Notes: generated by a model from the letters alone, not told the origin. Positions 2,740 through 62,737 are shown, counted from the stretch's first letter. The stretch: 62,737 nucleotides of DNA from an uncultured bacterium (GCA_963727715.1 CAVSGX010000008.1:1-62737), one strand, 5' to 3'. Made by a program: numbers and translations.

Positions 2740-3981
2740 ATGCCAAACATTACCAATTACATAGTTTATACTCTTCTTTTCATTTCGCTTTACTACGAAG
2801 TTTTTTTGCTGATCACTTATTTTGAAAAACGGCTTTTGATGCAAAATGAAACGGTCAGGATCAGGCGAGGAATAAAAAAATATCCGACTGTCACCATCAT
2901 TGTGCCGTGTTGGAACGAAGAAAAAACTGTCTCGGCCACTGTTCATTCCCTTCTCAACCTGGATTATCCAAAAGACAAATTGAAAATAATCATCGTGGAC
3001 GACGGCTCCACAGACAACACTTGGCAAGTCATTCAGAAATTCAAAAATAAAAAACAAATTGAAATTTACCACAAAGAAAATGGCGGCAAACACACGGCTC
3101 TTAATTTTGCCCTTGAGCGAATTACATCGGATTTGGTTGGTTGTCTTGATGCCGACTCCTTCGTGGACAAAGATGCTTTGCGCAACACCATTGTTTATTT
3201 TGAAGACAAGGAAATAATGGCTGTCACACCGAGCGTTAAAATCTGGAAGCCGAAAAATATTATCGAGATGATTCAAAAAGTGGAATACGCTTGGGGTATT
3301 TTCGTTCGCAAAATGCTTTCTTACATCGGCGCTATGTATGTCACACCTGGTCCATTTTCTATTTTCCGGCGTGAAGTTTTTGAAAAACTTGGCGGTTACC
3401 GCCACGCTCACTCAACCGAAGATATGGAAATGGCCATGCGACTTCAGGCCAACCATTACAAAATGGTCAACTCGCATAATTCGATGGTTTATACTGTGGC
3501 TCCGGACGCTTTACGTAAACTTTACAGACAAAGAACCCGCTGGTCTTACGGCTTCATCAAAAACGCCATCGATTACAAACATCTTTTTTTCAAAAAGGAA
3601 TATGGAAATCTTGGTGTTTTTATTCTGCCCATAGCTACCATTTCCATTTTTGCTCCGATTTGCGTTTTATCAATATCAATTTACGGTTTGATTCGAAGTT
3701 TCTTCCATGAATTGGTAAAAATAAACACGGTTGGACTCCAGTGGCCGTCTTGGGATTTTAGCTGGTTCGCCATCAATACCGGGCTTGTTAGTATTATTTC
3801 TTTGCTGGCTTTTTTCGGCACAGTTCTGATTATTTTCGTTTCGCGCAAAATGGCCGACGGCAAATTTAAATTTGGGATGGATTTGATTTATTTCTTTGCC
3901 ATCTACGCCTTCATCGCCCCGCTGTGGCTGTCCAAGGCGGTTTACAACAGCGTTTTTTCCGTAAAAACCAAGTGGCGTTAA
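2740..3981 (+). CDS. family 2 glycosyltransferase, processive type with a C-terminal membrane domain
   Basis: 413 aa; TIIVPCWNEE, DDGSTDNT, LDADS and QRTRW (QxxRW) motifs; N- and C-terminal TM helices. Confidence 0.85.
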   Translation: MPNITNYIVYTLLFISLYYEVFLLITYFEKRLLMQNETVRIRRGIKKYPTVTIIVPCWNEEKTVSATVHSLLNLDYPKDKLKIIIVDDGSTDNTWQVIQKFKNKKQIEIYHKENGGKHTALNFALERITSDLVGCLDADSFVDKDALRNTIVYFEDKEIMAVTPSVKIWKPKNIIEMIQKVEYAWGIFVRKMLSYIGAMYVTPGPFSIFRREVFEKLGGYRHAHSTEDMEMAMRLQANHYKMVNSHNSMVYTVAPDALRKLYRQRTRWSYGFIKNAIDYKHLFFKKEYGNLGVFILPIATISIFAPICVLSISIYGLIRSFFHELVKINTVGLQWPSWDFSWFAINTGLVSIISLLAFFGTVLIIFVSRKMADGKFKFGMDLIYFFAIYAFIAPLWLSKAVYNSVFSVKTKWR

Positions 3982-3991
3982 TCTTTTAGGT

Positions 3992-4675
3992 ATGGAACAC
4001 CAAATAAACTGGAAAAAATATCTTTATGCTTTTATCATCACCGCAATTATTTTCGGCACGGCTATTTATTTAAGTGATTATTTTAATCAGAAAAAAATAG
4101 ATGAGATCAGATCCATCCAAGACAAAATTTCCATAGACATTTTGTCCAGCGAGACGCAGTTCTCTCTTTTGGAAGAATCGTCCTGCCAAGATCTAGCCGG
4201 TCAGTCCGCCCTGTCCGATGAGCTCGGCTCGCTGGAAGAAAAACTTTCCTATGCCGAAAGAGACCGCGGCACAAATGATCCGGAAGTGCAGACTTTGAAA
4301 CAATACTATTCCCTGCTTGAAATCAAAGATTACATTTTAATGCAAAGCATCGCTGAAAAATGTGGTAAGCAACCTTTAACCATCATCTATTTTTATTCCA
4401 ACACCAACAACTGTTTGGATTGCGAACGCGAAGGTTATGTTTTGACTGATTTGCGACAGCGTTTCCCGAATTTGCGCGTCTATTCTTTTGATTATAATTT
4501 GGATATTTCTGCTCTGAAAACGCTCATTGACATCAATAAAGTCAAAGACCAGCTTCCGGCTGTTTATATAAAAAATAAAATGTACTACGGCTTTCAAAGC
4601 TTAGACGATATTCAGAAAATAATTCCAGAACTTTTCGCCACCAGCACAGCGACCACAACAAAGGTAAAAAAATAA
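3992..4675 (+). CDS. membrane-anchored thioredoxin-fold protein with a CxxC motif
   Basis: 227 aa; one N-terminal TM helix; IIYFYSNTNNCLDCE resembles a thioredoxin-like beta-alpha-beta with CLDC; lies next to trxB. Confidence 0.45.
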   Translation: MEHQINWKKYLYAFIITAIIFGTAIYLSDYFNQKKIDEIRSIQDKISIDILSSETQFSLLEESSCQDLAGQSALSDELGSLEEKLSYAERDRGTNDPEVQTLKQYYSLLEIKDYILMQSIAEKCGKQPLTIIYFYSNTNNCLDCEREGYVLTDLRQRFPNLRVYSFDYNLDISALKTLIDINKVKDQLPAVYIKNKMYYGFQSLDDIQKIIPELFATSTATTTKVKK

Positions 4676-11551: not shown

Positions 11552-11674
11552 AAATTTCTAATTATTCTAATTGATCTAATTTCTAGATAATGTCCAAAAC
11601 CTAATATCTAATTTTGTCTATTTGGTTATTGTGATTTATTTAGGTTGATTAGAAATTAGAGTAATTAGGTTAAT

Positions 11675-12109
11675 TTACAACACCCCCACTTGTCCAAGCT
11701 TCTCTGCCAATGTGTCCGCTTGTTTTTCCACCACTTTCTTGTATTCAGTCCAAGTTTTCTCATTCCAAATTTCCAAACGACTGGAAACTCCGATGACCAC
11801 CACTTTGCTTTTCAATCCGGCTCTGTCGCGCAGAAAATCTGGAATGAGAATTCGACCGATGGAATCAATGTCCGCTTCCACCGCGCCGGCAAACATAAAA
11901 CGGTTGAAACTTCGATTATCGGCCTGACCAAGCGAACCCTGCGAAAGTTTTTCTTCAATTTTTTTCCACTCCTTTTGAGTGAAGACAAACAGACACTGAT
12001 CAAGTCCCGGTGTGACGACAATCTTCTTGCCCATCTCGGCCCGAAACTTGGCCGGAAGAGAAATTCTGTTCTTGTCGTCTATACTGTGTGTGTATTCGCC
12101 GATAAGCAT
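11675..12109 (-). CDS. mraZ: transcriptional regulator MraZ
   Basis: 144 aa; duplicated SpoVT/AbrB-like halves with DDKNRISLP and GRILIP motifs. Confidence 0.95.
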   Translation of the reverse strand: MLIGEYTHSIDDKNRISLPAKFRAEMGKKIVVTPGLDQCLFVFTQKEWKKIEEKLSQGSLGQADNRSFNRFMFAGAVEADIDSIGRILIPDFLRDRAGLKSKVVVIGVSSRLEIWNEKTWTEYKKVVEKQADTLAEKLGQVGVL

Positions 12110-12666: not shown

Positions 12667-13623
12667 TTACCCCTCAAGTAGGACAGAACTAATGTTTGAA
12701 TAATAACTCATTGGCGCGCGGAAGCCAATCACTTCTCTCGGTCGGTTGTTTAGGAAGGAATGTATTTCTTGCAATTCTTCCTCAGTGACTGACTCAATAT
12801 CTCTTCGTTTAGGCACAAAACATCTGATCCATCTGTTGGTGTTTTCCACCAGACCTTTTTCCCAAGAATGGTATGGATGTGTAAAATAGATTGGCACTTG
12901 CAGGAGAGTTTCCAACTCTTTCCAACAGGTGAATGCAATATCGTTGTCTGTGGTGATGCTCTTCAATTCAACACCATGGAACAGACGGGAAAGCGCGGCA
13001 CGAATAGTGTCGCGTTTTCTGTTGGGCAGTTTCCTGACCCATGTTCTTTTGGCTTGCCAATCCACAGCAACCAAAAGTACCCACGAACTGTCTTTGGAAA
13101 CGATGAAATCGAGCTCAATGTGTCCTAGACCTTTTCTCTCCGGTCTGACATCAATATACTTCCTGCCATCCTGAATGTGCTTCCAATGATTTCGTTTTCT
13201 CCCACCCTTGTGATTGTTCCAACCCCAAAAAAGCAGGTGGTTTAGACCTCTCGACTCGGCAAATTTGTATATGGCTTTGGCCGAGCAGATGATACCCATT
13301 TCACATTCAAGATACCCGCTAATCTGCTTCGGCGACCAATGATACGGCTTGGTTAATCGTTCCACCACGAATCGACAGAGAAACGGGTCAAGCGCCACTT
13401 TCAGACACTGCTGTTTGGCTCGCCATCTTTTCATTGAAACTTTCTGCTTGGCTTTTTCCGCTTCATACACCCCATTAACACTGTGTTTTTGTATTTCTCT
13501 GCTCACAGTGTTGACACTCCGACCGAGAAATTCGGCAATTTTGCGAATGGCCGAACCGGCGCAATACATCTTTTCAATACAAAACCTCTCTTCAAAAGAC
13601 AAATGATGATATTTGTTTTTCAT
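12667..13623 (-). CDS. IS30 family transposase
   Basis: 318 aa; N-terminal HTH (LSFEERFCIEKMY..GSAIRKIAEFLGRSVNTVSREI) and a DDE region ending HPYHSWEKGLVENTNRWIR. Confidence 0.9.
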   Translation of the reverse strand: MKNKYHHLSFEERFCIEKMYCAGSAIRKIAEFLGRSVNTVSREIQKHSVNGVYEAEKAKQKVSMKRWRAKQQCLKVALDPFLCRFVVERLTKPYHWSPKQISGYLECEMGIICSAKAIYKFAESRGLNHLLFWGWNNHKGGRKRNHWKHIQDGRKYIDVRPERKGLGHIELDFIVSKDSSWVLLVAVDWQAKRTWVRKLPNRKRDTIRAALSRLFHGVELKSITTDNDIAFTCWKELETLLQVPIYFTHPYHSWEKGLVENTNRWIRCFVPKRRDIESVTEEELQEIHSFLNNRPREVIGFRAPMSYYSNISSVLLEG

Positions 13624-13684: not shown

Positions 13685-13696
13685 GCTAGGGGACTC

Positions 13697-14696
13697 CGTT
13701 TCCGCACCCCTCAATTTAGACACTTCATTGAATCTAATAATACCTCTTTTGCTGTCCTAAATCCAAGACATTGACGAGGAATTTCGTTTAAAAACTTTTC
13801 AATTGAACGAAGCTCTTCTTCTGTGACTTCTCTCAAATCTTTTCTCTTTGGAACAAACACCCTGATCCATTTGTTTGTATTTTCAACCAAACCCTTTTCC
13901 CAGGAGTGATATGGGTGACAGAAATATATCGAACATTTTAGTTGTTTTTCCAGTTTCCTCCAACAATTAAATGCGATATCATTGTCTAGTGTAATTGTCT
14001 TGACTGGCATATTACGCAGAGAATCCAAGAAAGCACGCAATACCGTTGCGTGCTTTCTGTTTGGAATTTTGCGAGTGATGGTATCTCTGGAATATCGGTC
14101 AACCAAGACAAATAATGAACAAGCGTTGTGAGATGAGACAATGAAATCTCCCTCCCAGTGTCCAGATCTCTCCATTTTCGGTCTGTCTTCAATGTATTTT
14201 CTCTCATCGATGGCTTTACCGTATCTTTTCTTTTTCCAACCACTTTTCTTGTGGTGTTTTCTCCAAAACAGATATCTTTCCAAACATCTGGAATACACGA
14301 ATTTGTACACCGCTTTAGTTGAGATGTTTTTTCCTTGCAGTTTGAAATACCCTGATATTCTCTCCGGCGACCATCCTTCTTTCAATTTCTCCGGAATGAA
14401 TTTGGACAGTTCTCTGTCCAAAGCAGCTTTCATACACTGCTTCTTGCTTAAATATCTCCTCCAGTATGTTTTGTGGTGAGCTTTCTTGGCTACATACAAA
14501 CCTTTCACTTTCTTTTTCATTTCGTAGGCAATGCATGAATGGTGCCGGCCAAGTTTCTTTCCAATTTTCCTTGCACTCCAACCCTCGGAGAACAAAGCTG
14601 AAATCAAAACTCTTTCCTCGTATGACAAATGTTTAAATGTTTTCATATCACTCAATTATTTCTAACTGAGTGTCTAAATTCAAAGGTTAACTAACA
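13697..14696 (-). mobile_element. IS30-family insertion sequence, lineage B, copy 1 (1000 bp)
   Basis: Ends defined by comparing three copies; imperfect IRs sharing AATTTAGACACT; 3-bp direct repeat CTC (13694..13696 and 14697..14699). Confidence 0.9.
13711..14655 (-). CDS. IS30 family transposase
   Basis: 314 aa; protein identical to the ORF at 28228..29172; HPYHSWEKGLVENTNKWIR motif. Confidence 0.9.
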   Translation of the reverse strand: MSDMKTFKHLSYEERVLISALFSEGWSARKIGKKLGRHHSCIAYEMKKKVKGLYVAKKAHHKTYWRRYLSKKQCMKAALDRELSKFIPEKLKEGWSPERISGYFKLQGKNISTKAVYKFVYSRCLERYLFWRKHHKKSGWKKKRYGKAIDERKYIEDRPKMERSGHWEGDFIVSSHNACSLFVLVDRYSRDTITRKIPNRKHATVLRAFLDSLRNMPVKTITLDNDIAFNCWRKLEKQLKCSIYFCHPYHSWEKGLVENTNKWIRVFVPKRKDLREVTEEELRSIEKFLNEIPRQCLGFRTAKEVLLDSMKCLN

Positions 14697-14977: not shown

Positions 14978-16429
14978 TTATTTCGGTCTCATCAATGGGA
15001 ATAATTGCAACTCGCGCAAAGGTTTGTCGGCAAGAAAAGCGAAGAGACGCTCGCCGAAGCCAAAACCGCAGGTTGGGGGCATACCATGTTCCAGCATTTC
15101 CACGAATTCCCAGTCCGCCATCATAGCTTCTTTGTCGCCGGAATCCAAAAGTTTTTGTTGCACTTCAAATCTTTTTCTCTGATCCACCGGATCGTTGAGC
15201 TCCGAGTATCCCCTGCCCATCTCACTGCCGGCGATAATCGGTTGGAACATCTGCACAGTTTTGCCGTCAGGGTTACTCTTGGCCAGTGGCGCAATAAGAA
15301 TTGGATGATTTATCAGAAATGCCGGACCGGAAATATTTTTGCGACAATACTTCCAAAGCGAGTCAGTCAGACGCTCAATATTTGTGCCATCGTATTTTAC
15401 TCCAAGTTCATCAAGTTTATTTCTCATTTCGTCAGCCGAGGCGGTAGCCACATCCACGCCAACCTGCCTTTTTATTTCCTCACAATAATCAATCAAATCC
15501 CAATCATCTTCCAGATCAAAGGTGTGTCCGCGAGTGGTGAATTTTGATTTGCCAAAAACTTCCCTAGCGATTGTCCGATACATTTTTTTGACCAGTTCCA
15601 TTCCATCATTGTAATCAGCGTAAGCCCAGTAGAATTCCATGTTGGTGAATTCCTGCAAATGTTCAAGTGACGAACCTTCATTGCGATAAACTCGGCCGAT
15701 TTCAAAAGTTTTCGGAAAGCCAGCCGCCATCAAACGTTTCTGCCAGAGCTCGCCGACCGAGATGCGCAAATAAACATCCAAATCATAGTCATTGTGGTGT
15801 GTTTTAAACGGTTCGGCTTCGGCACCGCCTGTTGTCGTCTCCAGAGTAGGTGTTTCCACCTCCAAAAAACCTTCATCTTTCATAAACTGGCGAGTGATAT
15901 CCCAGAATTTGCTTTTTTTCAAAACAAGTTCTCTTAACTCAGAGTCTGTCAGCAAATCCAAATATCGCCTGCGATATCTTTCATCCACATCTTGCAATCC
16001 AGCCCATTTTTCGGGCAGAGGAGCAAGCGATTTGCTGACCATCGTCCAGTTTTTCATCAGGATGCTTTGCTCTCCTGTTTTGGATGTCAGCGCTGTGCCG
16101 GTTACTGAAATAAAATCACCGATGTCCACCGTGTCCACGAAAAGAGAAAAAGTTTCTTCCGAAAGTTCGTCTTTTTTTATGATTGCCTGCATCTTCTCGG
16201 TGCCGTCAAAAAGCACAGCGAAAAGTATGGCCCCTTGTCCGCGGATAGCCATAACTCGGCCAGCCACGGAAAACTCCTTGCCTTCGTATTCAAAATCTTT
16301 GAAATTTTCACGCGCTTCGGAAATAGAAAAATCCCGCGCGATTTTGGCCGGGTATGGGTCAATACCTTTTGATTTTAAAATCTCGATTTTGTTTAGCCGA
16401 GCTTTTTTAATTTCGTCTAACGATGCCAT
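14978..16429 (-). CDS. lysS: lysine--tRNA ligase (class II)
   Basis: 483 aa; OB-fold N-domain, class II motifs (FLEVETPTL, YRNEGSSLEHLQEFTNMEFY, GFGFGERL). Confidence 0.95.
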   Translation of the reverse strand: MASLDEIKKARLNKIEILKSKGIDPYPAKIARDFSISEARENFKDFEYEGKEFSVAGRVMAIRGQGAILFAVLFDGTEKMQAIIKKDELSEETFSLFVDTVDIGDFISVTGTALTSKTGEQSILMKNWTMVSKSLAPLPEKWAGLQDVDERYRRRYLDLLTDSELRELVLKKSKFWDITRQFMKDEGFLEVETPTLETTTGGAEAEPFKTHHNDYDLDVYLRISVGELWQKRLMAAGFPKTFEIGRVYRNEGSSLEHLQEFTNMEFYWAYADYNDGMELVKKMYRTIAREVFGKSKFTTRGHTFDLEDDWDLIDYCEEIKRQVGVDVATASADEMRNKLDELGVKYDGTNIERLTDSLWKYCRKNISGPAFLINHPILIAPLAKSNPDGKTVQMFQPIIAGSEMGRGYSELNDPVDQRKRFEVQQKLLDSGDKEAMMADWEFVEMLEHGMPPTCGFGFGERLFAFLADKPLRELQLFPLMRPK

Positions 16430-21829: not shown

Positions 21830-22036
21830 ATGTTCACACTAGATACTGATAGTGGGAAAAGATACGGCAGATTCAGAACAGAAGAAGATGCGATTAAATT
21901 TTTGTTAGAGAAAAAATATATTAAAGTAACAACACTTTGGGTAAGACCAACTCGTGGAAGTGTAAATTTTAGAGTAGCAAAAATTGTACCTTTGTCTGGA
22001 GGACCAAAGCCACTGAAAAGATCTTTGCTCAAATAA
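21830..22036 (+). CDS. hypothetical small basic protein
   Basis: 68 aa with a good promoter, SD and downstream terminator. Confidence 0.55.
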   Translation: MFTLDTDSGKRYGRFRTEEDAIKFLLEKKYIKVTTLWVRPTRGSVNFRVAKIVPLSGGPKPLKRSLLK

Positions 22037-22050
22037 TTTGTCGGCATCAT

Positions 22051-22079
22051 ACCTAGGACAACCTAGGTTTTTTCTTTTT
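22051..22079 (+). terminator. rho-independent terminator
   Basis: CCTAGG-ACAA-CCTAGG then TTTTTTCTTTTT. Confidence 0.65.
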
Positions 22080-22100: not shown

Positions 22101-22315
22101 AAGATTCGGTAATTATGATTTCAGAGACTGCGGAGGCAATTAAAAAAACAACGACGAAGGCGGAGTTGGCGCGAAGCAGTGTTTGACGAGCGGTACTCCG
22201 CGAGGAGTTTGCGAAAGCGCCACGAGTCGAGGAAGATTGTTTTCTTGATTGCCGAGCGAGAGCAAAAGTCCAGCAGGACTTTATGCGTGCTCTGAAATCA
22301 TAATTACTGAATCTT
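22101..22315 (+). repeat. structured intergenic element, copy A (long subtype)
   Basis: 26-bp arms 22101..22126 and 22290..22315 (one G-T pair) enclose a core that is near-identical to 60149..60299 and homologous to 40665..40879 (reverse strand). Confidence 0.9.
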
Positions 22316-22960: not shown

Positions 22961-23587
22961 TTAATGCTGGTGTTTATTTTTTAAATATTCAAAAACAGTC
23001 GGCAGAAATGAAATAAAAATTATGGTAACAATGATTGGTGTCAGGTAGGCATCGGCTTTCGGCAAAATATGGCCAAGATAAAATCCAACCAAAGTCATAC
23101 CGGCAGACCAAAAGACTCCGCCGATCAAAGTGTAAGTTAAAAATCGCCGAAATGTCAGATCGGCCACACCGGCCAAAGCCGGACCGAAACTGCGCACTAT
23201 CGGTACAAAACGGCCGATGATTATGGTTTTACCACCGTATTTTTCAAAAAATTTATGAGTGTAAACAACATATTTCGGGTTGAAAATTTTTGATTTTTCG
23301 TCAGTGAAAAACTTTCTGATGATTTTCTGGCCGAAAAAATAACTGAATATGTAACCAGCCGTGCCAGCCAAAAAAAATGTCAAAATCAAAGCCGGCAATG
23401 AGAAAATCCCCTGCGAAGCCAGGAAGCCGGTGGCAAAAAGCAGAGAGTCGCCTGGGAAAAAGAAAGTCAATGGAAAAGATTCAAAAAAAACAACGGCAAA
23501 AAGACCGAGATAACCGAATTGAACTACAAAAGAAATTAGTTGTTGCATGATTGGTTGATTAAATTTTTTAAAATCCGGTGAAGACAA
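22961..23587 (-). CDS. DedA family membrane protein
   Basis: 208 aa; FPGDSLLFATGFLA and GRFVPIVRSF motifs. Confidence 0.85.
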   Translation of the reverse strand: MSSPDFKKFNQPIMQQLISFVVQFGYLGLFAVVFFESFPLTFFFPGDSLLFATGFLASQGIFSLPALILTFFLAGTAGYIFSYFFGQKIIRKFFTDEKSKIFNPKYVVYTHKFFEKYGGKTIIIGRFVPIVRSFGPALAGVADLTFRRFLTYTLIGGVFWSAGMTLVGFYLGHILPKADAYLTPIIVTIIFISFLPTVFEYLKNKHQH

Positions 23588-23608
23588 AAGATTTTAAAAA
23601 AATTACAC

Positions 23609-25028: not shown

Positions 25029-25526
25029 TCACAGAAATTTCTTCTGCAGAAAAACAACTACAATAATCAAAACGACTTGCAACGACCAACCCAAAAGATG
25101 ATTTTCTTTCAGATCGTGTTGGATTTCCAAATGAAATTTTTCAAAACTGATAAATGGTTCGTGTTTGAATTTGAAATAGATAAAATGAAAAGCATCCGGT
25201 ATGACAGCGCCAAAAGCGCCCCAGAATAAAACAGAGTTGTAAAAAAAATTATGAGACATTCCGAAAAACAAAAAAACCAAAATAAAACCGAGTAAAAAAT
25301 CCAATCCAATTTTGAAAAGATCAAAAACAAAATCCCACCCGATTTTCATATCATTGTCAAGAAAATTATTTTCATTTTCTGACAATGAATTCAAATGATA
25401 ATCGTAATGAGGAATGGCGTCCAGTAAAAAATGTGAACAAAAACCCAAGGAAAAAGCCAGGATCGGATGTGTCGGCACAGCCGAAGCCAGAGCGCCACCG
25501 ATAATAGCGTGAGTAGTTAATGTCAT
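25029..25526 (-). CDS. membrane-bound metal-dependent hydrolase, YdjM/DUF457-like
   Basis: 165 aa; THAIIGGALA and HFLLDAIPH motifs; polytopic. Confidence 0.6.
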   Translation of the reverse strand: MTLTTHAIIGGALASAVPTHPILAFSLGFCSHFLLDAIPHYDYHLNSLSENENNFLDNDMKIGWDFVFDLFKIGLDFLLGFILVFLFFGMSHNFFYNSVLFWGAFGAVIPDAFHFIYFKFKHEPFISFEKFHLEIQHDLKENHLLGWSLQVVLIIVVVFLQKKFL

Positions 25527-26904: not shown

Positions 26905-27348
26905 ATGTCACTCATAACAAACCGCAAAGCCGGATTCAATTACGAAATTTTGGAAAAATACACCGCCGGTGTGGAACTTTTCGGTTTTGAAGTTAAATCT
27001 TTGCAAAAAGGACAGGGTTCTTTGGGCGGAGCACATGTCACAGTCCGCGGTGGTGAGGCTTTCATCATCGGAATGTCAGTTTCCCCTTATCAAACAAACA
27101 ACACGCCGAAAGATTACGACCCGATGCGCAACCGTCGGCTTTTGCTCAACAAAAAAGAAATTTATGAGTTGCAAAAAAGCGAGCAAACCAAAGGCTTGAC
27201 AATTGTCCCTCTTTCGGTGTACAATAAAGGAAGGAAAATCAAGTTGGATATCGCTCTGGTTCGTGGCAAGAAAAAATACGACAAACGTCAAACTCTGAAA
27301 AAGAAGGATGCTATGCGCGATGTCCAGAGGAATTTAAAAGTTCGTTGA
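26905..27348 (+). CDS. smpB: SsrA-binding protein SmpB
   Basis: 147 aa from the ATG at 26905 (the ORF is open from 26848); NRKAGFNYEILEKYTAGVELFGFEVKSL signature. Confidence 0.9.
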   Translation: MSLITNRKAGFNYEILEKYTAGVELFGFEVKSLQKGQGSLGGAHVTVRGGEAFIIGMSVSPYQTNNTPKDYDPMRNRRLLLNKKEIYELQKSEQTKGLTIVPLSVYNKGRKIKLDIALVRGKKKYDKRQTLKKKDAMRDVQRNLKVR

Positions 27349-27377
27349 CACCAAAACCTGACTCGATATTGGTATGC

Positions 27378-27549
27378 AAAATCCTGGCGAAATCATAAGT
27401 TTTTCGGAGCCTTTCGCAGGAGCTTAGAAAACAACAACGCAGGCGTGAGTATACACGCCGAGGAGATTGTTTTCTTGAGCGACGAGAAGTTCGCTGGTTC
27501 ACCAGAGCCAGACAGATTGCTCAGAAAAACTTGTGATGAGATAGGATTT
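27378..27549 (+). repeat. structured intergenic element, copy B (short subtype)
   Basis: Shares GCCTTTCGCA-GAGCT-AGAAAACAAC...GATTGTTTTCTTGAGCGACGAGAAGTTCGCTGG...CAGACAGATTGC with 61872..61990; the locus-specific arms pair (27392..27409 with 27520..27537, plus outer AAATCCT/AGGATTT). Confidence 0.85.
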
Positions 27550-27563
27550 TGTTTCCTAACATC

Positions 27564-27948
27564 GGGGGTGACAGGTTTTGACATAAAATTTGTATTGCCT
27601 CGGGCAAAGCAGAGCTCCGATAACTCTTTAAACTTTCGGAAAAAATAAGTGTAAAAAACTTATCTAGAGCTATCGTTTCTCCGTTCTACGGAATGAACGA
27701 CTTCGCTTTTTCTTACGCTTCGGCTTAAGAAAGGATTGCCTTCCCAACATCCGATAAGGATGGTTAATCCTCATAAAATTCGGATCCGGATGCTAGCCTG
27801 TCTCGTCTAGCATCTTCAAAATAGAGACTCGCTTTTGTGATGTTTTGTTTGCTTTATAGTCACGAAATCTAAAACCCAGAAACAAACTAAGCTTTGTAGA
27901 TTCGTTTCAATCGATTTTATGGATCCGGCTTCGACGCCGGCACTTCCA
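27564..27948 (+). ncRNA. ssrA: tmRNA (transfer-messenger RNA)
   Basis: 5' GGGGGTGACAGGTTTTGAC; 3' T arm CCGGC-TTCGAC-GCCGG then CACTTCC-A; acceptor GGGGGTG/CACTTCC with G3-U70; candidate tag frame ends ...NDFAFSYASA with TAA at 27726..27728; directly downstream of smpB. Confidence 0.8.
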
Positions 27949-28213
27949 CATCGTTGAACTGTTAGCGTACAAATTGGTCAAATATTGTTGTTTATCAACA
28001 CCTTTGTGCGTTTCTAACCTTTCAGAAATAGACTGTGCTTCGAAAGCCGCTTCTTGAATCGCAAGGAGCGGTTTTTCGGCTACAACATTGAACTTTTGGT
28101 CAATTAGCTGGTGTTTATAACCAAGAGAGGAAAGTATGCCACGCTTCTTGCTTGCAGATGTATTCTTATCCGAAAGACACGAGAACATATTATGTTTAAG
28201 GACAGAAAGACTT

Positions 28214-29213
28214 CGTTTCCGCACCCCTCAATTTAGACACTTCATTGAATCTAATAATACCTCTTTTGCTGTCCTAAATCCAAGACATTGACGAGGAATT
28301 TCGTTTAAAAACTTTTCAATTGAACGAAGCTCTTCTTCTGTGACTTCTCTCAAATCTTTTCTCTTTGGAACAAACACCCTGATCCATTTGTTTGTATTTT
28401 CAACCAAACCCTTTTCCCAGGAGTGATATGGGTGACAGAAATATATCGAACATTTTAGTTGTTTTTCCAGTTTCCTCCAACAATTAAATGCGATATCATT
28501 GTCTAGTGTAATTGTCTTGACTGGCATATTACGCAGAGAATCCAAGAAAGCACGCAATACCGTTGCGTGCTTTCTGTTTGGAATTTTGCGAGTGATGGTA
28601 TCTCTGGAATATCGGTCAACCAAGACAAATAATGAACAAGCGTTGTGAGATGAGACAATGAAATCTCCCTCCCAGTGTCCAGATCTCTCCATTTTCGGTC
28701 TGTCTTCAATGTATTTTCTCTCATCGATGGCTTTACCGTATCTTTTCTTTTTCCAACCACTTTTCTTGTGGTGTTTTCTCCAAAACAGATATCTTTCCAA
28801 ACATCTGGAATACACGAATTTGTACACCGCTTTAGTTGAGATGTTTTTTCCTTGCAGTTTGAAATACCCTGATATTCTCTCCGGCGACCATCCTTCTTTC
28901 AATTTCTCCGGAATGAATTTGGACAGTTCTCTGTCCAAAGCAGCTTTCATACACTGCTTCTTGCTTAAATATCTCCTCCAGTATGTTTTGTGGTGAGCTT
29001 TCTTGGCTACATACAAACCTTTCACTTTCTTTTTCATTTCGTAGGCAATGCATGAATGGTGCCGGCCAAGTTTCTTTCCAATTTTCCTTGCACTCCAACC
29101 CTCGGAGAACAAAGCTGAAATCAAAACTCTTTCCTCGTATGACAAATGTTTAAATGTTTTCATATCACTCAATTATTTCTAACTGAGTGTCTAAATTCAA
29201 AGGTTAACTAACA
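28214..29213 (-). mobile_element. IS30-family insertion sequence, lineage B, copy 2 (1000 bp)
   Basis: Same ends as copies 1 and 3; flanking triplets differ (CTT versus TGA), so there is no target-site duplication. Confidence 0.9.
28228..29172 (-). CDS. IS30 family transposase
   Basis: 314 aa, protein identical to 13711..14655. Confidence 0.9.
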   Translation of the reverse strand: MSDMKTFKHLSYEERVLISALFSEGWSARKIGKKLGRHHSCIAYEMKKKVKGLYVAKKAHHKTYWRRYLSKKQCMKAALDRELSKFIPEKLKEGWSPERISGYFKLQGKNISTKAVYKFVYSRCLERYLFWRKHHKKSGWKKKRYGKAIDERKYIEDRPKMERSGHWEGDFIVSSHNACSLFVLVDRYSRDTITRKIPNRKHATVLRAFLDSLRNMPVKTITLDNDIAFNCWRKLEKQLKCSIYFCHPYHSWEKGLVENTNKWIRVFVPKRKDLREVTEEELRSIEKFLNEIPRQCLGFRTAKEVLLDSMKCLN

Positions 29214-36246: not shown

Positions 36247-36266
36247 GGTTTAATAATATCATGAAA

Positions 36267-36426
36267 GACCTGACAAAAAAAGATTTTTGGAGACTCCGCA
36301 GGTGAGGAGCTGGTTTTGTCAACGACCCGAGCGAAGCGGGGGCTCTTGACAAATCCGAGCCGAGGACAGCCGAGAAAACTCGCTGGAGTTTTCGAGGTTG
36401 CTCCAAAAATCTTTTTTTGTCAGGTC
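36267..36426 (+). repeat. structured intergenic element, copy C (divergent)
   Basis: Perfect 26-bp arms GACCTGACAAAAAAAGATTTTTGGAG (36267..36292) and its complement (36401..36426); the core starts GAGACTCCGCAGG and contains CCGAGC...GAGAAAACTCGCTGG like the other copies. Confidence 0.8.
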
Positions 36427-36435
36427 TAAAAAATT

Positions 36436-38617: not shown

Positions 38618-38660
38618 ATCTATATTTTACATTATTTCATTTTTATTTCAAATTACAAAC

Positions 38661-38695
38661 AAAAAACACTCCGCTGATCGAAGTGTTTTTTGTTT
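38661..38695. terminator. hairpin terminator with A/T runs on both sides
   Basis: AACACT-CCGCTGATCG-AAGTGTT flanked by AAAAAA and TTTTTTGTTTT. Confidence 0.55.
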
Positions 38696-40092: not shown

Positions 40093-40638
40093 ATGATATA
40101 TATTTTAATTGTCGTAGTTTTAATAGTTTTGTGGTTGGTTTTAGCATACAACGGCTTGGTGCGTTCGCGCACACAGGCGCAGGAAGGTTTTTCGGATATC
40201 GATGTCCAGCTCAAGCGTCGCTATGATTTGATTCCCAACTTAGTGGAGTCGGTCAAAGGTTACGCCGCGCATGAGTCCGGAGTTTTTGAAGCAGTGACCA
40301 AAGCTCGCACGACTGCCATGCAAGCTACCGGATCGGCCAAAGCCGGCGCGGAAAATGCTCTCTCCGGCACACTCAAGTCACTTTTCGCCGTGGCGGAAAA
40401 TTATCCTGACCTCAAAGCCAATCAAAACTTTCTTTCGCTACAAAACGAACTGACAGACACCGAGGACAAAATTCAAGCCGCGAGACGTTTCTACAACGGC
40501 ATGGTCCGCGACCTCAACACTAAAATCCAGACTTTCCCGACAAATATTTTTGCCAACTCATTCGGCTTTACCAAAATGGATTTCTTCGGCAACGCCCTAA
40601 CTGACGCCGAAAAGCAACCAGTCGCAGTGAAGTTCTAG
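40093..40638 (+). CDS. lemA: LemA family protein
   Basis: 181 aa; TM anchor plus YNGLV..R......DIDVQLKRRYDLIPNLVE signature. Confidence 0.9.
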   Translation: MIYILIVVVLIVLWLVLAYNGLVRSRTQAQEGFSDIDVQLKRRYDLIPNLVESVKGYAAHESGVFEAVTKARTTAMQATGSAKAGAENALSGTLKSLFAVAENYPDLKANQNFLSLQNELTDTEDKIQAARRFYNGMVRDLNTKIQTFPTNIFANSFGFTKMDFFGNALTDAEKQPVAVKF

Positions 40639-40644
40639 TTATTT

Positions 40645-40899
40645 GAAATTTCAAAATTTGTTTCGTCACAATTTTTTTGAAAACAGAATAATTTTCTGCT
40701 GAAAATTTTCTTCCTGCTCGGAAATCAAGAAAACAATCAACTCGGACTCGTAGCCTTTTCGCAAACGGCCTCTGCTGAGGCCGCCCAGCTGGTGTACCAG
40801 CTGGGTCGCTGCTTCAGGCTTACTTCGTCCTCGTTGTCGTTTTCTAATTTCCTGCGCAATGTTTCAAAAAATTCGTGACTTCACAGGATTTTGAAATTT
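40645..40899 (-). repeat. structured intergenic element, copy D (long subtype, opposite orientation)
   Basis: Core and inner arms at 40665..40879; outer arms AAATTTCAAAAT pair across an internal loop; fills almost the whole lemA-htpX spacer. Confidence 0.85.
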
Positions 40900-40909
40900 G
40901 TAAAAAATT

Positions 40910-42317: not shown

Positions 42318-43318
42318 TGTTAGTTAACCTTTGAATTTAGACACTCAGTTAGAAATAATTGAGTGATATGAAAACATTTAAACATTTGTCATACGAGGAA
42401 AGAGTTTTGATTTCAGCTTTGTTCTCCGAGGGTTGGAGTGCAAGGAAAATTGGAAAGAAACTTGGCCGGCACCGTTCATGCATTGCCTACGAAATGAAAA
42501 AGAAAGTGAAAGGTTTGTATGTAGCCAAGAAAGCTCACCACAAAACATACTGGAGGAGATATTTAAGCAAGAAGCAGTGTATGAAAGCTGCTTTGGACAG
42601 AGAACTGTCCAAATTCATTCCGGAGAAATTGAAAGAAGGATGGTCGCCGGAGAGAATATCAGGGTATTTCAAACTGCAAGGAAAAAACATCTCAACTAAA
42701 GCGGTGTACAAATTCGTGTATTCCAGATGTTTGGAAAGATATCTGTTTTGGAGAAAACACCACAAAGAAAAGTGGTTGGAAAAAGAAAAGATACGGTAAA
42801 GCCATCGATGAGAGAAAATACATTGAAGACAGACCGAAAATGGAGAGATCTGGACACTGGGAGGGAGATTTCATTGTCTCATCTCACAACGCTTGTTCAT
42901 TATTTGTCTTGGTTGACCGATATTCCAGAGATACCATCACTCGCAAAATTCCAAACAGAAAGCACGCAACGGTATTGCGTGCTTTCTTGGATTCTCTGCG
43001 TAATATGCCAGTCAAGACAATTACACTAGACAATGATATCGCATTTAATTGTTGGAGGAAACTGGAAAAACAACTAAAATGTTCGATATATTTCTGTCAC
43101 CCATATCACTCCTGGGAAAAGGGTTTGGTTGAAAATACAAACAAATGGATCAGGGTGTTTGTTCCAAAGAGAAAAGATTTGAGAGAAGTCACAGAAGAAG
43201 AGCTTCGTTCAATTGAAAAGTTTTTAAACGAAATTCCTCGTCAATGTCTTGGATTTAGGACAGCAAAAGAGGTATTATTAGATTCAATGAAGTGTCTAAA
43301 TTGAGGGGTGCGGAAACG
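42318..43318 (+). mobile_element. IS30-family insertion sequence, lineage B, copy 3 (1001 bp)
   Basis: Same ends as copies 1 and 2; 3-bp direct repeat GTT (42315..42317 and 43319..43321); one extra A compared with the other copies. Confidence 0.9.
42359..43304 (+). pseudogene. IS30 family transposase, frameshifted copy
   Basis: CACAAAGAAAAG here versus CACAAGAAAAG in copies 1 and 2 (extra A at 42774..42776) splits the ORF into 42359..42799 and 42840..43304; also one His-to-Arg change. Confidence 0.85.
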
Positions 43319-43371
43319 GTTACCTCTCCGTTAGAGAGTTTATTACATCTTTGCTTTTTTGTCAAGTACAA

Positions 43372-47098: not shown

Positions 47099-47101
47099 TT
47101 T

Positions 47102-47239
47102 ATCCGCACACCAATTTTGGCATTATTTTTTGTTGCAATGTCAGTATTATTTCAGACATCAATTTTTGTGGTACAACCTGAATTTTATTAATAATTTTCC
47201 AAAAAATAATTGCAACGATGCCAAATTTGGTGTGCGGAT
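47102..47239. repeat. 138-bp element bounded by 22-bp inverted repeats (MITE-like or large hairpin)
   Basis: ATCCGCACACCAATTTTGGCAT (47102..47123) versus ATGCCAAATTTGGTGTGCGGAT (47218..47239); the arm sequences differ at one position (T versus A) over 22 nt; A/T-rich interior. Confidence 0.6.
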
Positions 47240-47299
47240 GAATTATACCACTTGATCAAAAAATCGTCTCCAGAATCAAATATGTAAAATTTTTTCAAC

Positions 47300-47839: not shown

Positions 47840-48863
47840 ATTCCCAAATGTATTAGGACACTCTTGTAAAATAGAGTGATATGAAATTTAAAAATATTTC
47901 GTCGGTTGAGCGGCTGGAAATTTCCATATTAAAATCAAAAGGATATTCCATTCGTGCCATAGCCGAAAAGATGGAGAGAAGCCCGAACACCATCTCGTAC
48001 GAGCTTCGAAAAAACAAAACTGGTGGCAGATACGACCCGAAAAAAGCCGAGGCCAAGTCTCATCTGCGAAAGAGAATGAGAAAACTGCAATGGATGAAAA
48101 TCGAGCAAAACTCGGAACTGAAAAAATACATTGTCGCCGGTCTGCAAAACAAATGGAATCCGGACGAAATCTCAGGAAGGATGAAGCTGGAGAAAAAGCC
48201 GTGGTTTGTTTCCAAAAATTCGATATACCGGTGGCTATATTCAAACAGGGGTCAAAAATACTGTCCGCTTCTGTATTCCAAGCGATACCACCGAAGAAAA
48301 AGAACTGGGTCGAAAAAGAGAACACTCATTCCAAACCGTGTTGATATATCGAAACGATTTCGCGGAGCGGACAACAGAACAAGATATGGACATTGGGAAA
48401 AAGATGCTGTTGTTTCAAGAAAAGGTGTGTCAGCTTCACTGGCTGTGGCGACAGAAAGAAAAAGTCGATTGCTTGAGGCCAGAAAAGTCAAAAATATGTC
48501 ACCGACGGATCATGAAATTGCCACCAGAAAAATGTTGCAAAACAAAAAAGCTCTGAGTATCACCAGAGACAATGGTATTGAAAACATCTATCACGGAGAA
48601 ACACCGACACCATCATTTTTCTGCGAAGCATACTCATCCTGGCAGAAAGGCGGGGTTGAAAATGGCAACAAACTGATCCGAATCTTCTTTCCCAAAGGAA
48701 TTGATTTCAGATTTGTTACCCAGGAAGAAGTTGACCGAGCAGTCGAGACCATCAACAACAAACCAAGAAAAATTCTGAAATACAAAACAGCTCTCGAGGT
48801 CGCGAGAAGCTGTGGTATTATTAACAATATTAAAAGTGAGAGTGTCCTAATTCAGGGTGGAAT
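47840..48863 (+). mobile_element. IS30-family insertion sequence, lineage C (boundaries approximate)
   Basis: Inverted repeats ATTAGGACACTCT at 47852..47864 and 48839..48851, with weaker matches extending outward (ATTCC...). Confidence 0.75.
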
Positions 48864-48867
48864 TTAG
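47881..48867 (+). CDS. IS30 family transposase
   Basis: 328 aa; HTH (LKSKGYSIRAIAEKMERSPNTISYEL) and DDE region with YSSWQKGGVENGNKLIR. Confidence 0.9.
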   Translation: MKFKNISSVERLEISILKSKGYSIRAIAEKMERSPNTISYELRKNKTGGRYDPKKAEAKSHLRKRMRKLQWMKIEQNSELKKYIVAGLQNKWNPDEISGRMKLEKKPWFVSKNSIYRWLYSNRGQKYCPLLYSKRYHRRKRTGSKKRTLIPNRVDISKRFRGADNRTRYGHWEKDAVVSRKGVSASLAVATERKSRLLEARKVKNMSPTDHEIATRKMLQNKKALSITRDNGIENIYHGETPTPSFFCEAYSSWQKGGVENGNKLIRIFFPKGIDFRFVTQEEVDRAVETINNKPRKILKYKTALEVARSCGIINNIKSESVLIQGGI

Positions 48868-59842: not shown

Positions 59843-60061
59843 ATGAAAAAAACTGTTATATTGTGGCACCTTTTTGCTGAGAATTATAGCAGAAGTAACT
59901 ATATATCAGCTATTGTAACTGAATTTGATGGTACCGATACAAACCTCTTGAATGCTTATTTGGAGACACAGAAAAAAAGATTCATCGGAAGCAAAGTCAA
60001 ACGCGAAGATAATTTTTGGGATGTTGTGGAAGCTATACCTGTACATTTTCAAATCATTTGA
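59843..60061 (+). CDS. hypothetical small protein
   Basis: 72-aa ORF with GGAGG upstream and a terminator downstream. Confidence 0.5.
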   Translation: MKKTVILWHLFAENYSRSNYISAIVTEFDGTDTNLLNAYLETQKKRFIGSKVKREDNFWDVVEAIPVHFQII

Positions 60062-60072
60062 AACAAGCCACT

Positions 60073-60106
60073 AAGCCTTGGCATTCATGTCAGGCTTTTC
60101 TTTTTA
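60073..60106 (+). terminator. rho-independent terminator
   Basis: AAGCCT...AGGCTT hairpin then TTCTTTTTATTTT. Confidence 0.55.
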
Positions 60107-60122
60107 TTTTGCAAAAAACAAC

Positions 60123-60325
60123 AAAGCCTAGCGGTTGCATTTTCCGAGACTGCGGAGGCAATTAGAAAACAACAACGAAGACGGAGTTGGCGCGAAGCAG
60201 TGTTTGAGCGTAGCGAGTTTGCGAAAGCGCCACGAGTCGAGGACGATTGTTTTCTTGATTGCCGAGCGAGAGCAAAATCGCACCAGCGATTTATGCGTGC
60301 TCGAAAAATGCAACTGCTAGGCTTT
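60123..60325 (+). repeat. structured intergenic element, copy E (long subtype)
   Basis: 26-bp arms 60123..60148 and 60300..60325 (two non-Watson-Crick positions) enclose a core near-identical to copy A. Confidence 0.9.
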
Positions 60326-60356
60326 TCTTTTTGCTAAAAATCACTACACTATAAGT

Positions 60357-61858
60357 ATGCCAGACATCAAAGAAATCACTTCCCTTCTTTCAAATCCCAG
60401 CCAGGATGATTTGACCTTGATTCAAAAGGCTTACGCTTTCGCCGTGCGCGCTCACGAGAGACAAAAAAGAATGTACGGCGAACCGTATTTCATTCACCCT
60501 TTCGCCACGGGGAAAAACTTGGCCGAGCTCGGTATGTCCGCCACGACCATTTCAGCCGGCCTTTTGCATGACACGTTGGAAGACACTTCCGTCACAGCCG
60601 AAGAACTGGAAAAAAATTTTGGAAAGGAGATTCTTTTCTTGGTGGAAGGTGTGACCAAACTCGGCCAAATAAAATATCGTGGAATGACCCGCCACACCGA
60701 GAGTTTGCGAAAACTTTTTGTGGCTATGTCGCAAGATATTCGCGTACTCATCATCAAACTTTGCGACCGCCTGCACAATATGCAAACTTTGCAATTCGTG
60801 CCGAAGGAAAAACAGTTACGCATCGCCACTGAGACTCTGGAAATTTACGCACCACTGGCTTATCGCCTCGGCATCAGAAAAGTCCAACGATCTTTGGAAG
60901 ACATTGCATTTTCATATGTCTATCCGAAAGAATTTGAAGAAACAAACAAACTGTTGAAAATAAAATTAGACGAAAGCGAGGAATCTTTGCAAAAATTTCA
61001 AAAATCGCTAAAAAAAGAGTTGGCCAAAAATAATATTCTTCACTTTCAAACGGATTATCGGGTCAAGGGTTTGTATTCGCTGTATAAAAAACTGAAGCGC
61101 AATGATATGGATATTGAAAAAATCTACGACATATCGGCAGTGCGAGTCATAGTGCCGACAGTTGAGGAATGTTACAAAGTTCTCGGCATAATCCACAGCA
61201 ACTGGAAACCTCTGACCGGCCGGATCAAGGATTATATTTCCACTCCGAAACCGAATGGTTACCAATCGCTTCATACCACTATTTTTTCCGGCGACGGAAA
61301 TATTATTGAAGTCCAAATACGCACCGAAGAAATGCATCGCGAAGCGGAATACGGCATTACTTCGCATATTCTGTACAAACATTCTCAAGAAGAAACCAAA
61401 AAAAGAGACGACTCTTCCGGTTTTTCATGGATTAAAAATATTATATTGACCGACGATGAAAAAAACTAAAGATACCGATTTTAAAGATGTCCCGAAATGG
61501 ATTAAAGAGCTCGTGGAATATCAGAAAAAAAATAATGACAAAGAATTTCTGAAGGATATGAAAACGGATTTTTTGGAGGAGCGGATTTTTGTTTTCACCC
61601 CAAAGGGCGATGTTATTGATCTGCCGATAGGTTCGTCGGCTGTTGACTTTGCTTACAGCATTCACTCGGACATCGGCGCCATATGTCCGGAGTGCAGTAA
61701 ACGGCAAATTTATGGCCCTCGACACCGAATTGCAATCCGGCGACTTCGTGGAAATCGAAACCAAAAAAACGGCTAAAGCTAGCCGTAAATGGCTGGAATT
61801 TTGCAAAACGACACTGGCCAAAAGGCACATCCGCAACTTTTTGGAGAAGAAAAAATAA
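60357..61858 (+). CDS. RelA/SpoT-family (p)ppGpp synthetase/hydrolase with a TGS domain, two frame breaks in this assembly
   Basis: HD domain (HDTLEDT), synthetase domain (RVKGLYSLYKK, YQSLHTT, EVQIRT), TGS (FVFTPKGDVIDLP...NGKFMAL); breaks at the A7 run 61459..61465 and at CCGG 61687..61690. Confidence 0.8.
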
Positions 61859-61871
61859 GATTATTCTTGTG

Positions 61872-61990
61872 TTCCGAGAAAGGCCTTTCGCAAGAGCTCA
61901 GAAAACAACCACGGTAATCTGTGGATTGTTTTCTTGAGCGACGAGAAGTTCGCTGGCAGAGCTTTGCCAGACAGATTGCCTTTCGAGGAA
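61872..61990 (+). repeat. structured intergenic element, copy F (short subtype)
   Basis: The core aligns with copy B over its whole length; imperfect outer pairing TTCCGAGAAAGG with CCTTTCGAGGAA. Confidence 0.85.
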
Positions 61991-62737
61991 TTCAAGTACA
62001 AGTTTTATTTTACAGTAAATACTAAAATTTTTGATGGAGTAAAGATCGTCGTCTGTGTTGTCGGCCTGTTTGATTTCTTCCGGCGCGCGACTTTCATCTT
62101 CAACAATAACTTCGCCGACAGAATTTTCGGCCAGTTTTTCACCCAAGTCTGGTGTTTCAATGACCGGATTTTTCTGGTTGTTTTTTATCAGTCCTAAAAT
62201 ATTTTTCAAATCCTCGTCCGAGAAAAAATCAATGGTAATCTTTCCGCCGTTTTTACGTTTTTTTCAATCATAACCCTCGTGCCGAGCGATTCAGTCAAAG
62301 CTTCTTCCAACTCTTGTGTTTCTGGATCAAGCAACGCGTCTTTTTTGCGAGCTCTTTCGTAGGCGATGCGACGGGCAATGGCTTCAGCTTCGCGCACGGT
62401 CAATTTTTTAAACATTATTTCTTTGAATAAAGTGTTCTGTTCCTCCGGTCGGCTGGACAGAGCCAAAAGTGGACGGAGGTTGACCCTCAAAAATTTTGCC
62501 GGTGGAAATAGCATCCAGAATTTCTGTCGGCAAATCCAAAATGCGCAAGGTGTTGGTTATATAAACACGACTCTTGCCGATCTTTTGAGCGATGTCGGCG
62601 TGCTTGAAACTGAATTCATTGACCAAACGATCAAAAGCCCGAGCTCGGTCAACAGGATTTAAATCTTCGCGCTGAACATTTTCAATCAGAGCCAATTCCA
62701 ACTTCATCAAATCATTGCCTTCCACATCATCGCCGAC
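61898..62737 (-). CDS. parB: chromosome partitioning protein ParB (5' end beyond the window), two frame breaks in this assembly
   Basis: ALIENVQREDLNPVDRARAF, HTH KIGKSRVYITNTLRIL, then RPLLALSSRPEEQ and GGKITIDFFSDEDLKNILGLI in other frames; breaks near 62475..62485 and at the run 62250..62254. Confidence 0.8.

Follow-up and report, generated by a model that had tools for sequence, protein, structure and literature searches.

Conserved three-way-junction repeats bounded by locus-specific inverted arms in genomes of CPR bacteria

The long inverted arms that enclose each copy of a dispersed repeat in this uncultured bacterium are the outer part of P1, the basal helix of an element organised around a three-way junction. 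The repeat unit measures 85–260 nt and occurs about once per 10 kb in this CPR bacterium and its relatives; six copies (A–F) make up approximately 2% of the window, the whole 62.7-kb stretch of DNA analysed here. The element is previously undescribed, a structured repeat whose conserved fold is found in no database. Its core is shared between loci, and the outer 8–25 or more base pairs of P1 are specific to each locus. According to the account that we favour, and to which we give about an even chance of being right, this outer P1 is generated from the local flank and then kept complementary, and the cores are homogenised within a genome.

The features of the window and of two groups of variant copies are collected in Table 1. 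A covariance-model search of the window matches exactly the six copies, every one of them strand-specific; copy E, for instance, scores 166.7 bits on the plus strand and 6.3 on the minus strand. Compared with shuffled sequences, the folding z-scores of the six copies range from -6.8 to -11.4, and E, C, D, and A provide the four longest inverted repeats that a search of the entire window finds within 320 nt. The hairpin of B occupies the spacer from smpB (stop at 27348) to the first base of tmRNA (27564), and that of D is the entire spacer between the LemA stop codon (40636–40638) and the start of the M48 peptidase gene (40910), lying antisense to both. The 5' arm of F takes in the last Lys codon and the stop of relA (AAAATAA, stop at 61856–61858).

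Table 1. Positions of the element copies, their arms, and associated features. Plain numbers refer to the window; L numbers denote loci from related genomes.
Feature	Position	Strand	Details
Copy A	22101–22315	+	arms 22101–22126 / 22290–22315, 26 bp, one G-T pair; core between them
Upstream of copy A	21830–22036; 22051–22078		68-aa ORF, then canonical terminator
3' side of copy A			stop codon of minus-strand SNase gene 9 nt past the 3' arm
Copy B (short-P2 subtype)	27364–27564	+	inner arms 27392–27410 / 27519–27537
Copy B, outer arms	27364–27385 / 27543–27564
Copy C (divergent subtype)	36266–36427	+	perfect 27-bp arms 36266–36292 / 36401–36427; covariance-model score 20.1 bits
Copy D	40639–40906	-	interrupted arms 40639–40682 / 40862–40906
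Copy E, 5' arm	60116–60148	+	26-nt arm of the first-pass annotation, 60123–60148
Copy E, core	60149–60299	+	three-way junction, long P2 domain, P3 hairpin (GCAAAATCGC-ACCA-GCGATTTATGC)
Copy E, 3' arm	60300–60332	+	from inverted-repeat search; 26-nt part 60300–60325
Terminator upstream of copy E	60077–60100	+	canonical intrinsic terminator of the 72-aa ORF (59843–60061), outside the element
Copy F (short-P2 subtype)	61852–62011	+	5' arm 61852–61884; 3' arm 61978–62011
Copies with nested module	L017:7285–7484; L028:3292–3550; L083:3308–3568; L054:200–356; L045:7695–7773
Copies with internal loop in P1	L006:1897–1981; L058:1610–1715; L059:980–1123; L014:5322–5442; L068:10–94; L020:6853–6994; window copy B, 27364–27564

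The first-pass annotation had described the arms of A, E, and C as 26-bp inverted repeats peculiar to each locus. The arms quoted for A (one G-T pair), E (one G-T and one C-A pair), and C (perfect) are present in the window as stated, and inverted-repeat searching and folding bear out that B, D, and F have longer, interrupted arms. The uniform length of exactly 26 bp did not survive closer measurement, as the perfect arms of C have 27 bp and those of E run past an internal loop to 33–48 nt. When arm lengths are tabulated over 72 copies, only 6 have exactly 26 bp and no fixed length emerges; the median is about 25–26, the quartiles are approximately 21–32, and the range is 6–72. The arm lengths thus show a floor near 18 bp and not a set length. 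Likewise, the T-rich tract plus GAG that had been assigned to the unique arms belongs instead to the shared unit and forms its conserved inner end, TTTTTnnAGAC / GTCTnnAAAAA; in the 5' arm of E, the inner TTTTCCGAG is part of this conserved unit.

The shared unit is bounded by an inner inverted repeat of 11–13 bp, TTTTTnnAGAC...GTCTnnAAAAA. In near-identical paralogs (L004/L069, 99.4%; L021/L043, 98%; L045/L068, 97%; and A/E of the window), similarity stops sharply just outside TTTCCAAGAC...GTCTTGGAAA, also given as TTTTTCAAGAC...GTCTTGAAAAA. As homology between copies ends at this inner repeat, the shared unit possesses an 11–13 bp inverted repeat of its own. In the consensus, P1 closes the structure and a short helix lies between the junctions J1/2 (UUGCRCAGG) and J2/3 (CGAGCAUAG). 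The base of P2 reads GGAAAUU-AGAAAACAAC / GAUUGUUUUCU-UGAUUUCC, and its distal part is only a 4-bp hairpin in the mini forms, which measure about 85 nt, but exceeds 100 nt in other copies; in some cases it holds a further, nested module. P3 follows the consensus GCAAAA-NNNN-ANCA-NNNN-UUUAUGC, the junctions are purine-rich, and the loops are GNRA-like.

This fold is strongly supported by covariation, with changes on both sides in 32 of the 52 consensus pairs. Paired cells amount to 95%, against 32–47% when partners are slid by 1–3 columns, and none of 500 shuffles matched the observed values; P2b is invariant only because the search pattern prescribes it. Moreover, folding energies favour the plus strand in 72 of 73 copies, with a mean difference of 9.8 kcal/mol, and the structural constraint is on one strand only. 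The core is modular as well. A nested module of about 75 nt (GTGAGRAG-hairpin-YGCAAGACYTTGA-hairpin-GTGAAAGGTGTACTG-hairpin) has three alternative insertion points in the element, namely the P2 tip, before the P2 3' strand, and after J2/3, and it takes the place of P2 in a mini form. Another subfamily carries a conserved asymmetric internal loop farther out in P1 (CTCGTCGACTCAT ... ATGAGGAGAAAGAG) with the potential for tandem G-A pairs, possibly a protein-binding motif. On the minus strand of L058, at about position 6850 of the locus, the motif of this subfamily occurs as a 34-nt hairpin without a core. A tie between tmRNA and the subfamily with the outer motif CTCGTCGAC...GGAGAAAGAG was considered and rejected, as its other members have no tmRNA nearby.

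The TopA protein of the window has its best matches, at no more than 84% identity, in MAGs of Candidatus Zambryskibacteria, Paceibacterota, and Parcubacteria. Related copies were found by scanning one genome per species with a fixed 18-base pattern, GATTGTTTTCTTGANNNNCGAG, which biases the sample of copies to one subtype. The scan yielded 80 loci, mostly in such MAGs and often several per genome, along with a few chance matches in unrelated bacteria. A covariance model built on 45 copies detected 74 copies in 594 kb of these pattern-derived loci and none in 550 kb around relA from 83 other relatives, including the closest; the closest relA relative in the metagenome scan shares 78% identity. 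Searches of Rfam 15 were negative for the six window loci, with the cut-off relaxed as far as E <= 10, and for 14 related loci at the gathering threshold. A full-text literature search, which included conserved sequence strings, found nothing relevant. A viral origin was also rejected, for the single pattern match in IMG/VR is a chance one and was negative in a covariance-model search.

Each of 55–72 copies from about 30 other Paceibacteria and Zambryskibacteria genomes has its own locus-specific arms. Pairing is stronger between the two flanks of one copy than between 5' and 3' flanks combined across copies (Mann-Whitney p = 2e-10), the anchored extension of pairing having a median of 11.5 versus 7 and the local pairing score a median of 18 versus 15. 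The arms contain 57 G.U pairs against 20 A.C pairs (p = 3e-5). As the first-pass annotation had pointed out, the ends are unique and inverted, unlike the anatomy of ordinary transposons, and direct target duplications are absent. When all arm ends were compared, no conserved motif was found at the outer boundaries. The outer end of the 3' arm falls within -12 to +20 nt of the stop of the converging gene and reaches that stop in 17 of 47 copies.

The origin of the arms is best seen at the yebC-ruvC site. In L050, the 3' arm (3998–4027) contains the end of yebC, ..ACG AAT GCT GAA TAG (YTNAE*, stop 4008–4010), and the 5' arm (3818–3847) is an inverted copy of it, with 13 nt perfect, a 2-nt bulge, and 3 more. 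The corresponding sequences in L010 are GCC GAA TAG of yebC in one arm and GCCGAGTAG in the distal arm. The distal arms of L010 and L050 mirror the local codons, so that each follows the synonymous codon of its own genome. Empty junctions between the two genes (L168–170, L171, and L172; YebC 87% identical) have 0–2 nt from the yebC stop to the ruvC ATG, and keep the YTNA(D/I)* end without a palindrome. The coding end of yebC in one arm, together with the palindrome-free empty junctions, indicates that one arm pre-existed, that the second was derived, and that no palindrome was there before. The signs of local inverted duplication are weaker at three other places: an arm of L027 contains G AAA AAG TAA of topA, the 5' arm of window copy F takes in AAAATAA of relA, and the empty L023 site is without either arm of the L053 copy. 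A counter-example is L058, where an empty site orthologous to the L059 and L039 copies keeps a small coreless hairpin, AAAATCTCGTCGAACCATGATGAGAAAGAGATTT, with the outer motif of the subfamily. All site comparisons are between genomes that are at least 10–30% diverged; thus, the polarity of insertion or deletion and the timing of arm formation are inferred by parsimony.

The first-pass annotation had offered three origins for the palindromes. Insertion into pre-existing ones is unsupported where it can be tested, that is, at yebC-ruvC and at L023. Copying of flanking DNA in inverted orientation and correction between the arms of the hairpin both fit L050, L010, and L027, in which one arm is a gene end and the other an inverted copy of it that follows the codons of the respective genome.

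The arms turn over quickly. The extended -10 box of ruvC is common to four lineages (L010, L050, L175, and L165), and their four arm pairs are unrelated, even in lineages whose YebC proteins are 90–94% identical; at the site of L165, the occupant is another hairpin element and not the three-way-junction element. BLAST searches with flanks revealed many sites filled in several genomes, with arms partly conserved or wholly different. For instance, the orthologous copies of L005, L006, and L014 have partly conserved arms (TTATAACATA..). Additionally, the core is inverted relative to the flanking genes in 4 of about 17 orthologous site comparisons: L014 versus L005 (pfkB-aldolase), L077 versus L034, L017 versus L045, and window E versus L027 (topA-relA). 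The last pair has the arm sequence TTGCATTTTC/GAAAATGCAA in common, and the topA-relA spacer of L001 and L002 holds a P3 remnant oriented as in L027. One and the same site can also hold different forms, full in L029 and L051 and mini in L065. Core identity within a genome averages 0.85, compared with 0.62–0.81 for most same-site orthologs and 0.89 for one closely related pair. As the cores within a genome are more alike than orthologs, cores are exchanged or replaced among loci and the arms stay in place.

The element keeps a regular relation to the adjacent genes. In 43 of 59 copies with callable neighbours, a gene converges on the 3' side (p = 6e-4), and between co-directional genes the element lies antisense 32 times and sense 8 times (p = 2e-4). 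A typical site consists of a stop codon, the arm-core-arm unit in antisense, an extended -10 box (TGnTAnAAT), about 7 nt, and the next ATG. L005 and L014 have this box in both arms, and the two boxes point outward, one toward each of two divergent genes. Genes beside the element often look leaderless, with an extended -10 box (TGnTAnAAT or TGnTAnACT) approximately 7–9 nt before the ATG. For element-adjacent genes, no Shine-Dalgarno sequence was apparent in the flanks of L005, L014, L023, L075, L010, L050, and L175 or at 60333–60359 of the window.

Copies in sense orientation, of which A and E are examples, are preceded by a small ORF with a canonical terminator, and the terminator directly 5' of E bears on its possible transcription. 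Copy B is an exception, as it lies in sense in the smpB-tmRNA spacer with no terminator; judging from this arrangement, it would be co-transcribed with its neighbours. Consensus scans for a plus-strand promoter and a positional -10 profile gave nothing consistently placed. The antisense bias, the shielding terminators, and the absent promoters argue against simple expression, and the plus-strand RNA is therefore putative. The rich, tertiary-style conservation argues for RNA rather than ssDNA as the selected molecule. The arms were considered as canonical terminators and rejected, as a terminator scan matches only separate upstream hairpins and never the arms, which are AT-rich stems of 18–70 bp seldom followed by a T-run. 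The idea of a cassette composed of ORF and element was likewise dropped: no fetched locus contains a homologue of the small ORFs that precede A, E, and C, so that support for such a cassette is lacking. The 68-aa and 72-aa ORFs upstream of A and E are dissimilar to each other. The 72-aa ORF has no Pfam match and is not in the topA-relA spacer of any relative examined.

In the favoured account, the proximal arm would be whatever adjoins the unit, in many cases the terminal codons of a converging gene together with its stop, or else a -10 box, and the distal arm would be an inverted copy of it. The arms may arise and be renewed by fold-back copying, an intra-strand template switch primed from the inverted repeat of the element itself. 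Such priming would resemble quasipalindrome mutagenesis, the simplest known mechanism, and would explain the inverted coding ends, the mirrored synonymous changes, the fast turnover, and the absence of both direct duplications and a transposase. The arms may then be retained because a helix of no less than about 18–20 bp is selected in the folded plus strand, whether RNA or ssDNA; with a minimum of about 18 bp, such selection would account for the length floor as well as the excess of G.U pairs. Flips of the core would follow from recombination between the arms, and gene conversion or copy replacement would homogenise the cores. Slow selection for complementarity could yield the same end state as fold-back copying. 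A bolder proposal, which we hold to be possible but on balance doubtful, is a self-propagating structured element without a dedicated transposase, whose inverted repeat folds the nascent strand back so that each new or renewed copy duplicates its target in inverted form. If so, gene ends and promoters would become long hairpins, operons would be split, and the core could flip; the element would represent a class of mobile element with "target-site inverted duplication" carrying a conserved RNA three-way junction.

Other explanations have to be weighed against local generation of the arms. The element may be a non-autonomous, MITE-like DNA element with TTTTTnnAGAC as its terminal inverted repeat, inserting in the loops of pre-existing hairpins or terminators, the arms being old stems. 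Copies do sit at gene ends, the outer arms of E and L027 resemble a bidirectional terminator (A-tract/stem/T-tract), L058, though empty, retains a small hairpin at the position of the L059 and L039 cores, the window holds coreless AT-rich hairpins (23560–23605 and 38657–38695), and the relA-parB spacer of L001 is a hairpin with a 16-bp stem at the position of F in the window. However, that L001 hairpin is unrelated in sequence to the arms of F, and the empty sites at yebC-ruvC and L023 offer neither hairpin nor arms. The arms also take in conserved coding sequence and mirror synonymous differences, and no matching transposase was found, the ends of the IS30-like IS of the window being different; we consider this explanation improbable. 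A similarly small probability attaches to ordinary paralogous ncRNA genes without mobility, in which P1 is selected for pairing alone and the arms have diverged slowly by compensatory changes after ancient duplications. It would require arms to be unrelated beside cores that are 97–99.4% identical, with a knife-edge boundary, and also at sites where YebC is 90–94% identical; it is further opposed by gain and loss among close relatives (no copy in 550 kb of relA loci versus 6 in the 62.7-kb window), by coding sequence in the arms, by the lack of evident promoters, and by the mostly antisense orientation. Strong covariation, conserved junctions, and subfamilies across genomes nevertheless speak for it, as do the partly conserved arms of the L005/L006/L014 orthologs and the G.U intermediates.

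The folded strand could instead be an ssDNA site, a substrate for recombination or transposition by a strand-specific enzyme as in attC or IS200/RAYT, with the asymmetry reflecting ssDNA folding. Strand-specific pairing that tolerates G.T, the lack of a detected plus-strand promoter, and a location just past stop codons where, as with the bottom strand of attC, it is the antisense strand that folds would all suit such a site; RAYT-like Y1 transposases (PF01797) with REP palindromes of their own are present in L034, L017, and L067, at element sites of other genomes. Yet the three-way junction spans 180 nt, has conserved purine-rich junctions and GNRA-like loops, and takes up modular insertions, features that are typical of RNA and unlike known ssDNA substrates. 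In addition, the RAYT-associated REPs differ from the inner repeat of the element, the window has no Y1 transposase or integrase, and conserved outer motifs resembling R boxes are lacking, all of which leaves this alternative unlikely. Chance complementarity in AT-rich spacers, or ordinary intrinsic terminators, can hardly be credited at all. AT-rich flanks do give a sizeable background of pairing (median 15 against 18), but the arms include the four longest inverted repeats of the window, the z-scores reach from -6.8 to -11.4, U-tracts are generally absent after these AT-rich stems, and the pattern recurs in about 70 copies.

Each of the known kinds of repeat resembles the element in part. 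Like REP/BIME and REPIN sequences with their RAYTs, it is an abundant extragenic hairpin-forming palindrome at gene ends, in some cases abutting stop codons, homogeneous within a genome, and long inherited vertically, and RAYT-like genes occur in some of the same genomes. REPs, however, have conserved stems and short variable loops, whereas the element has a conserved three-way-junction tip on locus-unique stems, and the RAYT genes found are flanked by palindromes other than the element. These RAYT-like genes lie at L034:6244–6900, L017:~2250–2880, and L067:94–520, flanked or interrupted by the genome-specific palindromes TTGTGGAAGACGGTCTTCCACA, ACTTGGACACGCCGTTTCCAAGT, and TGGCAAGGACGGCCCTTGCCA; two of them sit in spacers that hold the element in other genomes (pfkB-aldolase and the L045 site). 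With the Correia/NEMIS, ERIC, and RUP MITEs, the element shares a size of 100–250 bp, an intergenic location, a high copy number per genome, and terminal inverted repeats that are conserved. MITEs are flanked by short direct duplications and the element by 8–25 or more bp of inverted local copies; the core differs further in its RNA-type covariation and strand asymmetry, and no cognate IS was found.

In integron attC sites, the functional bottom strand folds and the sites follow stop codons. The element likewise places an imperfect inverted repeat of its own right after a stop, with the antisense strand folded and a variable tip that can branch. The arrangement of conservation is reversed, as attC has conserved outer R boxes (RYYYAAC/GTTRRRY) and a free centre, whereas the element has a conserved centre and free outside; at element loci there is no R-box motif at the arm boundaries, and there are neither cassette arrays nor IntI, the neighbours being housekeeping genes. 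Quasipalindrome template switching (the Ripley model) copies one hairpin arm onto the other, produces mirrored changes, and lets palindromes grow outward, but is known for point and cluster mutations and not from the life history of repeat families; any part that it plays in the present case is putative. Structured ncRNAs with long closing stems and several paralogs, such as bacterial Y RNAs, offer another parallel: their ends form a long basal helix, their stems covary, a variable domain is modular, and a genome has several of them. They lack sequence or Rfam similarity to the element, which has a far higher copy number, is mostly antisense with no evident promoters, and overlaps neighbouring genes with its arms. 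Intrinsic terminators have a short GC-rich stem and a U-tract, unlike the long AT-rich arms. IS200/IS605 PATEs and the guide-RNA scaffolds of TnpB/IscB have conserved subterminal hairpins at either end, adjoin or derive from tnpA/tnpB, and bear a locus-specific guide on one side only, whereas both flanks of the element are locus-specific and mutually complementary, and no tnpB- or iscB-like ORF lies beside any window copy. As it fails the defining features of REPs, MITEs, attC sites, terminators, and Rfam families, the element is classed among interspersed structured repeats.

The window also contains mobile DNA and hairpins of other kinds. An IS of the IS30 family of about 1 kb (HTH_38 and rve, 314 aa) is present at 13692–14696, 28209–29213, and, inverted, at 42318–43319; the copies are at least 99.8% identical, and the third is frameshifted. 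Diverged IS30-like transposase genes at 12667–13623 (-) and 47881–48867 (+) show 46% and 36% identity, and the IS load is unusual for a CPR genome. The IS30-like IS was rejected as a mobiliser of the element, as its end repeat, AATTTAGACACT, differs and it is absent from 1.2 Mb of other loci holding 74 copies. A hairpin at 47099–47242 has 25-bp arms that are 92% complementary, an 8-bp inner stem, an AU-rich interior, and a z-score of -7.7; it is unlike the element core and gives only weak, microRNA-precursor-like noise in Rfam. Coreless AT-rich intergenic hairpins with stems of 16–26 bp include, besides the two named above, 25344–25395 and 11553–11675. Some coreless hairpins of the window score weakly in the covariance model as "P1 only", and they could be ordinary bidirectional terminators or emptied arms.

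In the window, relA/spoT (60357–61858) and parB (62206–62725) are split over two or three reading frames, and the parB stop is lost (TAA to TAC), which lets an ORF extend into copy F. In relatives, the two genes are intact reading frames of 473–474 aa and 334–342 aa, respectively; the split genes are either pseudogenes or the product of indel errors in assembly. Further hairpin families occur in relatives at L165:3029–3173 (also in L166 and L167), L172:~2040–2150, and L165:3928–4038, with long locus-specific stems, purine-rich tips (e.g. ..CGTCACCTTATACYCGATAAGGCTYCTC..), and better folding antisense to the operon. In the pfkB-aldolase spacer of L077 (6700–7203), an ORF of about 140 aa lies between two copies of a 27-nt palindrome (AACTATACGATATATCGTATARTTAAC) and represents a different type of insert in this hot spot. 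The L003 contig is a perfect mirror, reading dprA-topA-relA-parB and then the inverse about position 15,350, probably a fold-back artefact of assembly.

The genomes of CPR bacteria (Patescibacteria) are small and thought to be poor in repeats. Despite this supposed poverty, the element is an abundant repeat in dozens of them. It provides a concrete and testable case of locus-specific palindromes made from flanking DNA, coding sequence included, and bears on the spread of hairpin repeats in the absence of recognisable transposases, on the upkeep of perfect palindromes, and on the splitting of operons and the gain of new promoters or terminators. If the core is a functional RNA, it would represent a new and abundant class of ncRNA in a major uncultured lineage. 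The outer stems, made of local DNA, may point to a new way of spreading or maintaining elements.
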